64,000 nucleotides of DNA from Escherichia phage HMD-6: the sequence record PQ505080.1; one strand, 5' to 3'. Below are positions 57,589 to 58,225 of this stretch, piece by piece. Below the pieces are notes generated by a model. The model was not told where the DNA came from, searched no databases, and saw nothing but the letters and a program-made list of their open reading frames with translations. Both the position numbers and the translations under genes were made by a program. Each line of letters begins with the position of its first letter. Positions within the stretch are counted from its first letter, which is position 1.

Positions 57589-57939
57589 ATGAAAGATGGG
57601 GATAAGCTGCTATATCTTAAAGTCCCCCTTGAAATACTGTCTATGTCAAAAGTTTTGAATGACACAACCGGGGAGGTTGTTGTTCTTGACTTATATGACA
57701 AGATCGTATACTGCTACCTGCACAACTGGTATAAGCTTGGAGGAAATTCACGCTTCACACCCAGCACAAGGAAAATTGCAGCAGATGTTGGGATAAAGAA
57801 AACAAAAGCAGCAGCGTGCGTTAAAACTTTAGAATGTGCAGGAGTGGTTGAAATATCCACACAAGGGAGAGGTAAAAGATGCACATTTTCCAAAGTTTTG
57901 CCGCCAGAAGAAGTTATTCGAATGTCAACAACTGGTTAG
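57589..57939 (+). CDS. HTH DNA-binding protein (candidate iteron-binding initiator or regulator)
   Basis: STRKIAADVGIKKTKAAACVKTLECAGVV helix-turn-helix-like segment; adjacent to iterons. Confidence 0.5.
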   Translation: MKDGDKLLYLKVPLEILSMSKVLNDTTGEVVVLDLYDKIVYCYLHNWYKLGGNSRFTPSTRKIAADVGIKKTKAAACVKTLECAGVVEISTQGRGKRCTFSKVLPPEEVIRMSTTG

Positions 57940-58010
57940 ACCAGTAAAAACTTAAATATCTGTACTATAAGGATTCGTATGTTTTATGTCCACCCCAGAG
58001 CAGAGGATAG

Positions 58011-58225
58011 TACCTGTCCGTGATACGGACACTACTGTCCGTCACGCGGACACATCTGCCCGTAATACGGACACTAACTGTCCGCAATACGGACACATAA
58101 AGAATATAACTAAAATAACTAAATAATAAAAATAAAAGATCTAGTACTTATGGTACTAAAGTACATATACTTAACTTATGTAGAATATACTAGATCCTAA
58201 GTACCATGTTTTAAATTTATTACTT
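58011..58225. promoter_or_regulatory. candidate replication origin: four 15-bp palindromic iterons (GTCCGTnnnACGGAC) at about 21-bp spacing, then 125-bp AT-rich tract
   Basis: Iterons at 58016-58030, 58038-58052, 58058-58072, 58080-58094; AT-rich with palindromes TAGTACTTATGGTACTA. Confidence 0.55.

Follow-up and report, generated by a model that had tools for sequence, protein, structure and literature searches.

Where DNA replication begins in the rV5-like myophages of Escherichia coli is the question raised by a short locus of Escherichia phage HMD-6 (sequence record PQ505080.1), from which we analysed a stretch of 64,000 nucleotides, referred to below as the window. A first-pass annotation had described a lambda-like origin in this DNA, made up of the gene for a 116-amino-acid (aa) helix-turn-helix (HTH) protein, four palindromes and an AT-rich tract, and had proposed that the protein is an origin-binding initiator, with operators for a repressor as the alternative reading of the palindromes. 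All three components were present as described. Judged from its sequence, we consider the locus probably, though by no means certainly, an iteron-type replication origin whose initiator is minimal, being a DNA-binding domain only. The proposed role of the HTH protein gained support from its homology to the structure 4RO3, from the RepA_N initiators matched by its model in a Foldseek search, and from repeats that are unique in the genome and adjoin its least stable DNA. The components are as follows.

57589-57939, plus strand: open reading frame (ORF) of gp075 (rV5 gp075/ORF79), a 116-aa winged-helix protein predicted to be a RepA_N-like N-terminal DNA-binding domain alone; candidate initiator
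57940-58013, unstranded: 74-bp spacer from the stop codon to the first repeat; least conserved segment (80%), taken as the neutral baseline
58014-58032, plus strand: iteron 1, CTGTCCGTGATACGGACAC, from the motif search and copies in related phages
58035-58053, plus strand: iteron 2, CTGTCCGTCACGCGGACAC, from the motif search and copies in related phages
58056-58074, plus strand: iteron 3, CTGCCCGTAATACGGACAC, from the motif search; one half-site mismatch (GTCCG in some relatives)
58078-58096, plus strand: iteron 4, CTGTCCGCAATACGGACAC, from the motif search
58097-58225, unstranded: AT-rich tract of 129 bp with 19-20% GC (window, 42.6% GC), a candidate DNA unwinding element by GC content and nearest-neighbour stability

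Relationship of gp075 to RepA_N initiators

The gp075 protein is labelled a 'putative transcriptional regulator' in GenBank and a 'replication initiation protein' in RefSeq and in PHROG 12838. Comparison with Pfam placed it slightly below the cut-offs of both HTH_36 (24.5 bits, cut-off 25) and DUF6945 (PF22182; 27.1, cut-off 28), and the same scan gave no match at E<=1 to RepA_N (PF06970) or Phage_rep_O (PF04492). The 'O-like' PHROG families were not among its PHROG matches, and no terminase small-subunit family was found among its Pfam, PHROG and NCBIfam matches. When gp075 was compared with all PDB sequences, 4RO3 was the one significant match, with an E-value of 1.4e-6 over residues 12-90, and the runner-up showed an E-value of 0.016. 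A profile of the 23-sequence gp075 family matched the same entry with an E-value of 4.9e-12.

An AlphaFold (AF2) model of gp075 was built from the 23-sequence alignment and searched with Foldseek against the PDB. This model had a predicted local distance difference test (pLDDT) score of 73.9; a model from 5 near-identical sequences reached a pLDDT of 47 and was unusable. Ranks 1-6 of the search were occupied by entries 4RO3, 4PQL, 4PT7 and 5KBJ, and generic regulators ranked behind them. The PDB title of 4PQL is generic ('N-terminal domain of DNA binding protein'), and we take this entry to be the RepA_N protein RepA of pSK41. The other three entries are structures of RepA_N-family initiators (PMC7145576). 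The gp075 model revealed a single winged-helix domain with disordered ends, and the C-terminal domain of RepA_N initiators was absent. In sequence, gp075 showed the domain homology that defines the initiator group of PLE RepA, pTZ2162 and pSK41 RepA, outside the curated Pfam models and without their C-terminal domain. Taken together, sequence and model predict a stand-alone RepA_N-like DNA-binding domain that lacks the C-terminal recruitment domain.

The gp075 family was found to be narrow. A word-indexed protein search returned only members that were at least 86% identical, and tblastn returned Vequintavirus only. Among 1.8 billion representatives, an exhaustive search with HMMER found only 15 matches at E<=1e-3, too few for comparing the protein and its sites in depth. 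The weak, remote relatives from the HMMER search were HTH_36/DUF6945 domains that match PHROGs annotated as replication initiators. On two metagenomic contigs (L024 and L025), distant relatives lay at divergent junctions near replication genes, and a clear iteron array was not found on these contigs. Longer remote relatives (P0009, P0016, P0017 and P0019; 146-217 aa) had acidic tails ending in ..PF or ..NF, which were absent from gp075. To the eye, these tails resemble the C-terminal tip of the single-stranded DNA-binding protein SSB, the peptide that recruits partners.

Structure of the repeat array

The core motif GTCCG-N5-CGGAC started at positions 58016, 58037, 58058 (GCCCG, one mismatch) and 58080, which corresponds to a spacing of 21, 21 and 22 bp. 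The palindromes had been described as lying immediately after the HTH gene; the order was correct, and the actual distance was 76 bp past the stop codon. Similarly, the four even copies of the palindrome given as GTCCGTnnnACGGAC were confirmed, although only the first copy fitted this form exactly. The repeat unit is 19 bp long and semi-palindromic, CTGYCCG-N5-CGGRCAC, with 6-bp inverted arms and a 5-bp centre. Thirteen distinct copies from related phages yielded the consensus CTG(T/c)CCG-(T/c)nAn(A/g)-CGG(A/g)CAC, in which CTG..CCG, the central A and CGG.CAC were invariant and most of the variation fell in the 5-bp centre. The non-palindromic flanks CTG and CAC orient the units, which are therefore direct repeats with inverted sub-repeats inside; the centre is not a poly-A tract.

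The array was clearly non-random. Dinucleotide shuffles of the window contained 0.48 +/- 0.64 matches at up to one mismatch, compared with 5 observed, 4 of which were in the cluster, and none of the 100 shuffles reached 5. In the whole rV5 genome (137,947 bp), only one isolated site with one mismatch was present outside the cluster. A scan of IMG/VR for the iteron pattern gave mostly single matches at chance level.

The palindromes might instead act as RNA hairpins in a read-through transcript, serving as a terminator, an attenuator or a protein-binding RNA array: every repeat has the potential to fold into a stem of 6 bp closed by a loop of 5 nt, and transcription from the upstream promoter passes through the array. 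We regard this explanation as barely credible. The natural half-site variants (GCCCG and CGGGC) were uncompensated; in particular, GCCCG..CGGAC leaves a C-A mismatch that breaks the stem, at the third repeat in most genomes and at the first in genome L008, which argues that the repeats are read as duplex DNA by a protein and not as RNA hairpins. The array also contained no compensatory change and no U-tract, and its 21-22-bp phasing would be meaningless for RNA.

Additionally, a leftward sigma-70-like promoter (TGGACA-17-TATAGT, 57992-57964, minus strand) was observed 24 bp to the left of the first repeat, within the least conserved segment. It is directed antisense into the HTH gene and has a perfect TATAAT in some relatives.

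The AT-rich tract as a candidate unwinding element

The first-pass annotation had reported about 125 bp of AT-rich DNA with palindromes and GATC sites, which agrees well with the 129-bp tract, its palindrome TAGTACTTATGGTACTA at 58142-58158 and its GATC sites at 58138 and 58193. The tract was the lowest-GC stretch of 100, 125 and 150 bp and the least stable duplex of 40, 80 and 120 bp (z = 4.3-5.8), in both the window and the rV5 genome. Two elements were recognised within it.

58129-58141, minus strand: GATCTTTTATTTT, which matches the oriC 13-mer consensus GATCTnTTnTTTT; the sole exact match in the window and the rV5 genome
58137-58197, unstranded: 61-bp sub-element with the inverted repeats AGATCTAGTA and TACTAGATCc at its ends, enclosing three of the four GTAC sites of the tract and TAGTACTTATGGTACTA

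The sequence GATCTnTTnTTTT is the 13-mer consensus of E. coli oriC. With one mismatch allowed, 4 such 13-mers were observed against 2.98 expected, which is not above chance. An enrichment of GATC was also rejected and given no weight, as this sequence occurs genome-wide once per 193 bp.

The tetranucleotide GTAC, like CTAG, is strongly under-represented in the rV5 genome (248 observed, 431-520 expected). Six GTAC sites, mostly WAGTAC, flank the repeats (57962-58204), four of them within 60 bp of the AT-rich tract, and positions 58144-58204 form the densest 60-bp GTAC cluster of the genome; the fourth site of the tract, at 58201, lies outside the 61-bp sub-element. The GTAC/WAGTAC sites may be a second protein-recognition motif.

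Conservation within Vequintavirus

To measure conservation, the nucleotide identity of each segment was determined against the most divergent members of the genus, whose gp075 is 88% identical at the protein level. The repeat array was 95% identical, the AT-rich tract 91-92%, the GC-rich block that follows it 92% and the neighbouring coding DNA 86-91%, compared with 80% for the 74-bp spacer. The repeats, the tract and the GC-rich block are thus better conserved than the spacer, which indicates that the non-coding block is under purifying selection.

The GC-rich element and satellite-like plasmids

Further to the right, the non-coding block continues to the first gene of a rightward operon.

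58235-58445, plus strand: GC-rich conserved structured element, 57-62% GC, with an invariant core at 58377-58441 and compensatory pairs
58538-58579, plus strand: hairpin in the leader with a perfect 12-bp stem, ATAGAAAAGCTC / GAGTTTTTCTAT, directly 5' of the ribosome-binding site of the 192-aa gene
58600-59178, plus strand: ORF of a 192-aa, Vequintavirus-specific protein, the first gene after the non-coding block

No credible ORF was found in the GC-rich block, and when 55-64 kb were compared with Rfam at E<=1, the part at 58.0-58.6 kb gave nothing but a chance-level match to rli43. Its proposed helices are a hairpin (58252-58262/58268-58279), a closing helix (58334-58343/58430-58439) and a 6-bp helix (58387-58392/58417-58422). 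Blocks that were 84-87% identical were found in one circular E. coli plasmid of 39.6 kb and in a few others of 13.2-13.7 kb. Between the phage and plasmid versions there were five compensatory pairs, two in the 11-bp hairpin stem and three in the 6-bp helix. The proposed helices paired at 99-100%, compared with 0-56% when the partners were slid, in a comparison of only two lineages and hence of few independent events. Single-sequence folding gave a z of only -1.7 to -2.2, and the block varies too little within the genus for covariation to be informative there. Owing to its G-U pairs, the element can fold in this way only as the plus strand, which favours an RNA transcribed rightward over hairpins of single-stranded DNA. 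The element is possibly an RNA or single-stranded DNA component of an origin (a primer or priming signal), a leader RNA or an antitermination element. Scans for its core detected one Vequintavirus contig in IMG/VR, and the core was not found in the species-representative genomes of GTDB.

Downstream of the element, the hairpin at 58538-58579 was invariant across the genus, and the helix that encloses it has one covarying pair. The sole PHROG match of the 192-aa protein was a family of unknown function; no Pfam, NCBIfam or PDB match was found for this protein, and a gene for a P-like loader was not recognisable downstream.

The plasmids with the GC-rich element are NZ_CP020521.1 (13,689 bp), NZ_CP043822.1, NZ_CP178698.1, NZ_CP035869.1 and CP148565.1, for which PLSDB gives no replicon type. 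NZ_CP020521.1 encodes major capsid and tape-measure proteins as well as proteins 48-54% identical to rV5 gp048 and gp056, genes that suggest a satellite of rV5-like phages. With their capsid and tape-measure genes and their gp048 and gp056 homologues, the 13-40-kb plasmids as a group may be a family, not described before, of satellites of these phages or of mini phage-plasmids related to them. They share only the GC-rich element with the phage and not its repeats; instead, they carry 6-7 copies of their own palindrome, CGGAAATATTTACCG, with 23-bp phasing. Their long non-coding region contains, in order, the palindrome array, the shared element and the gene for a 288-303-aa winged-helix protein, which scored above the HTH_36 cut-off in one plasmid and showed weak matches to replication-initiator PHROGs in the other. 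In an autonomous replicon, the palindromes, the element and the Rep-like gene are the obvious replication region.

Because phased palindromes are paired with the same element in both plasmids and phage, this arrangement modestly favours an origin; it fits a regulated leader RNA equally. In a broader and rather improbable version, the repeats, AT-rich tract and GC-rich element would constitute one replication-control module around a new RNA or single-stranded DNA element that is absent from Rfam and shared with unrecognised satellites, and the phage initiator would be DNA-binding only. If the module is shared in this way, the satellites would keep the element of the helper together with iterons and an initiator of their own, and would so plug into its replisome or control circuit.

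Possible relation to DNA packaging

Satellites often copy the packaging signals of their helpers, and the GC-rich element shared with the plasmids might accordingly mark the locus as a pac region, where gp075 would be a small-terminase-like recognition protein that marks the start of headful packaging. Small winged-helix proteins that bind repeated sites do occur among terminase small subunits, and neither PHROGs nor Pfam identified a small terminase in the neighbourhood of the large terminase gene. Vequintavirus genomes are circularly permuted and packaged by headful (PMC8407724, PMC13211470). Nevertheless, we consider this explanation highly improbable. The gp075 protein is homologous to RepA_N initiator domains and to no terminase family, and its gene lies 4.4 kb from the large terminase gene, with tRNA and lysis genes between them. 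Moreover, the satellite-like plasmids possess the GC-rich element without the phage repeats, and the covariation and one-strand G-U pairs of that element would be unneeded in a duplex pac site.

In the same region, we observed a 113-aa protein (60039-60380) 5' of the tRNA cluster, with an N-terminal KKRRRRGRP and an acidic C-terminus; it has no family assignment beyond PHROG 3330 (unknown function) and could be the missing small terminase subunit. The large terminase gene is interrupted by a group I intron (62809-63087, Rfam 81 bits), and the tRNA cluster lies upstream of it (60477-61286). Both the intron and the cluster were already known from the rV5 paper (PMC3606486).

Comparison with known replication systems

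RepA of PLE, a satellite of Vibrio cholerae, is a RepA_N protein whose N-terminal domain is entry 4RO3; it binds semi-palindromic iterons in electrophoretic mobility shift assays, and PLE replication requires both RepA and its iterons (PMC7145576). The gp075 domain is homologous to this protein (residues 12-90, as above), and 4RO3 was also its top structural match. The cognate sites in the PLE origin are direct repeats with inverted sub-repeats, as in the phage array, and the PLE replisome, which is provided by a phage, includes an SF1B-type helicase (PMC7145576); rV5 encodes a PIF1/RecD-like helicase. In both systems, the sites are in non-coding DNA near a strand or GC-skew switch. Unlike PLE RepA, gp075 corresponds to the N-terminal domain only, and the element that carries this candidate initiator is a 137-kb lytic myophage and not a satellite. 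The repeats also differ from the PLE iterons in being 19 bp long, with 6-bp arms and a 5-bp centre, and in not converging on a poly-A tract.

The lambda origin contains four dyad iterons of about 19 bp, which are bound by O dimers, and an adjacent AT-rich region that melts. The phage locus has the same layout and number of sites, and to this extent the likeness proposed in the first-pass annotation held. Other features of lambda were lacking: the phage repeats start 3' of the gene and not inside it, gp075 has neither a Phage_rep_O match nor the C-terminal loader-binding domain of O, and no P-like gene was recognisable. Whereas lambda uses DnaB of the host, rV5 has its own gp4-like primase-helicase.

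Iteron plasmids have phased iterons, a Rep protein of the winged-helix type and, beside the iterons, an unwinding element that contains 13-mer-like sequences (PMC4980987). These components of P1 oriR and RK2 oriV are common to the phage locus, which differs in that DnaA boxes were not found, that gp075 has one winged-helix domain instead of WH1-WH2, that there are 2-4 repeats, and that no separate copy-control array is present. In RSF1010 oriV, iterons are followed by an AT-rich segment and by ssi hairpins read by the plasmid's own primase. Compared by layout only, the order in the phage is alike, with repeats, AT-rich tract and GC-rich hairpins and a primase and helicase of its own; unlike the single-stranded ssi hairpins, the G-U pairs of the rV5 element favour RNA. 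The locus is therefore lambda-like by analogy only, and an iteron-type origin with a RepA_N-like binder appears to be the best available reading. Its minimal initiator would be unusual, and a structured element accompanies it.

Genomic position and points against an origin

The window derives from a Vequintavirus (rV5-like E. coli myophage, about 137 kb), and the 1.3 kb around the locus were 97-98% identical to more than 100 Vequintavirus genomes. The genes for polynucleotide kinase and phosphoesterase are followed by the gp075 gene, all to the right of a divergent junction at about 56.5 kb, and the cumulative GC-skew minimum and strand switch coincide with this junction, 1.5 kb from the locus. 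Searches of the literature revealed neither a mapped origin nor a transcriptome nor a described satellite for Vequintavirus. We also noted 18 GenBank records (MG0656xx) titled 'Campylobacter phage', with C. jejuni as host, that are at least 97% identical to E. coli rV5-like phages; from this identity, they are probably contaminants or their hosts are mislabelled.

Several observations weigh against an origin at this locus. First, transcription changes direction at the very place where the GC skew switches, so that skew is not independent evidence. The rV5 genome paper had applied skew analysis to the search for an origin, but every skew switch was a change of transcription direction and the origin remained undefined (PMC3606486). 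Second, the number of repeats varies: most genomes have 4, nimi and JES-2013 have 3 and navn has 2, the losses being exact 21-22-bp units, and four sites are thus not essential. Third, searches with the DnaA-box and IHF consensus sequences found nothing convincing. Fourth, the sites lie inside a rightward transcription unit, directly 5' of the plus-strand-specific element, possibly a regulated leader RNA, that heads the operon leading to the late genes.

Finally, a second repeat-rich region could be the origin, another origin, a pac region or the terminus. This region (window about 15,950-19,000; rV5 104,013-106,618) contains 2.6 kb described as 'non-coding' in the rV5 paper and lies where transcription units converge and the cumulative GC skew peaks. 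Within it are the second most AT-rich stretch of the genome and a dense set of repeats, namely 30-bp GATC-containing palindromes (GGCAACTATnGATCnGATCATAGTTGCC, two copies), the 15-bp tandem repeat GTGTAAACTRTCAGG (3-4 copies), ATGCAAACGAATGTCATGGC (two copies) and other repeats; its segments 16174-16220 and 16876-16899 are shared with the satellite-like plasmids.

Sister genera and possible transcriptional control

To the points against an origin, the sister genera add the position of their repeats. Phages of Mydovirus, Seunavirus and Henunavirus encode a 105-aa weak homologue of gp075 (BLASTP 9e-6) exactly at the divergent junction. On its 5' side, TCAATTTGAGCATAGGC occurs as two direct repeats at a distance of 24 bp, together with AT-rich DNA of about 90 bp that contains AAAAGATCT. 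The presence of the same module in these phages indicates that the combination of a winged-helix gene, repeats and an AT-rich tract is older than the genus, although the repeat sequences differ. In Mydo, GAP31, 4MG and pEp_SNUABM_01, the repeats are directly 5' of the start codon of the homologue itself, as expected for autoregulatory operators, and this position suits autoregulation as well as an origin. The order of AT-rich tract with GATC, repeats and gene resembles that of P1 oriR, and the presence of the module in other genera also speaks for an origin.

These observations bear on the main rival explanation, in which gp075 acts solely as a transcription factor, the palindromes serve it as operators or activator sites, and replication starts elsewhere. 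The sites might form a roadblock to read-through from the early promoter, or they might be needed to switch on a phage-specific promoter within the AT-rich tract, which would drive the structured leader and the rightward operon (the 192-aa gene, tRNAs, lysis, terminase and structural genes). We consider this possible but doubtful. It would account for the location of the sites within the transcription unit and for the sister-genus repeats, the missing recruitment domain of gp075 and the sufficiency of two or three sites in some isolates are in line with it, and the uniqueness of the motif would be accounted for if there is one regulated promoter with read-through. On the other hand, the sole significant sequence relative of gp075 with a known function is an origin-binding initiator, and RepA_N initiators head the Foldseek list. 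No sigma-70-like promoter overlapped the repeats, directly followed them or occurred within 58097-58235 in a sigma-70 scan, which is blind to phage-specific promoters. In addition, an operator has no need of the least stable DNA of the genome beside its sites. Initiators of iteron replicons such as P1, F and pSC101 commonly autoregulate, so that operator-like features are compatible with an origin and the two roles are not exclusive.

Proposed mechanism of initiation

Returning to an iteron-type origin, its initiator would be supplied by the following promoter.

57525-57554, plus strand: promoter-like site of the sigma-70 type, TTGACA-18-TATTTT with TG, just 5' of the HTH gene; promoter P76 in the rV5 annotation

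The replication genes of rV5 include a gp4-like primase-helicase, a T7-like polymerase and a PIF1/RecD-like helicase (SF1B/PIF1-like) (PMC3606486). Besides the homology of gp075, the support for an origin comes from the excess of phased repeats over chance, the purifying selection on the non-coding block, the exact oriC-type 13-mer in the least stable tract and the replication-initiator PHROGs matched by the weak relatives. From these features, we infer binding, dimerisation, melting, helicase loading and a role in replication. The gp075 protein would be produced early from the sigma-70 promoter, and a dimer would bind each of the four 19-bp repeats through the RepA_N-like winged-helix domain. 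The 21-22-bp spacing, two helical turns, would set all dimers on the same face of the DNA, and the resulting nucleoprotein array would strain and open the adjoining 129-bp AT-rich tract. Because gp075 has no recruitment domain, the T7-gp4-like primase-helicase of the phage probably loads itself on the bubble, with the SF1B/PIF1-like helicase perhaps helping. Theta replication would then begin with the T7-like polymerase. The origin may also include the GC-rich element, which would then act either as an RNA (primer or leader) or through hairpins of single-stranded DNA. As rV5 has its own primase-helicase, polymerase and PIF1/RecD-like helicase, a recruitment domain in the initiator may be dispensable.

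Significance for rV5-like phages

No origin has been mapped for the rV5-like phages, a large group widely used in the typing and biocontrol of E. coli O157, and the analysis provides a precise candidate in the form of a 210-bp site and a 116-aa protein. If the proposal is true, a RepA_N-type DNA-binding domain alone can initiate replication for a phage with its own gp4-like primase-helicase, and the RepA_N family, known mostly from Gram-positive plasmids, would extend to large lytic coliphages. The site would also offer a handle for engineering, for example in origin-based amplification or conditional replication. Furthermore, it would help to understand how the satellite-like plasmids with the shared element exploit rV5-like phages.

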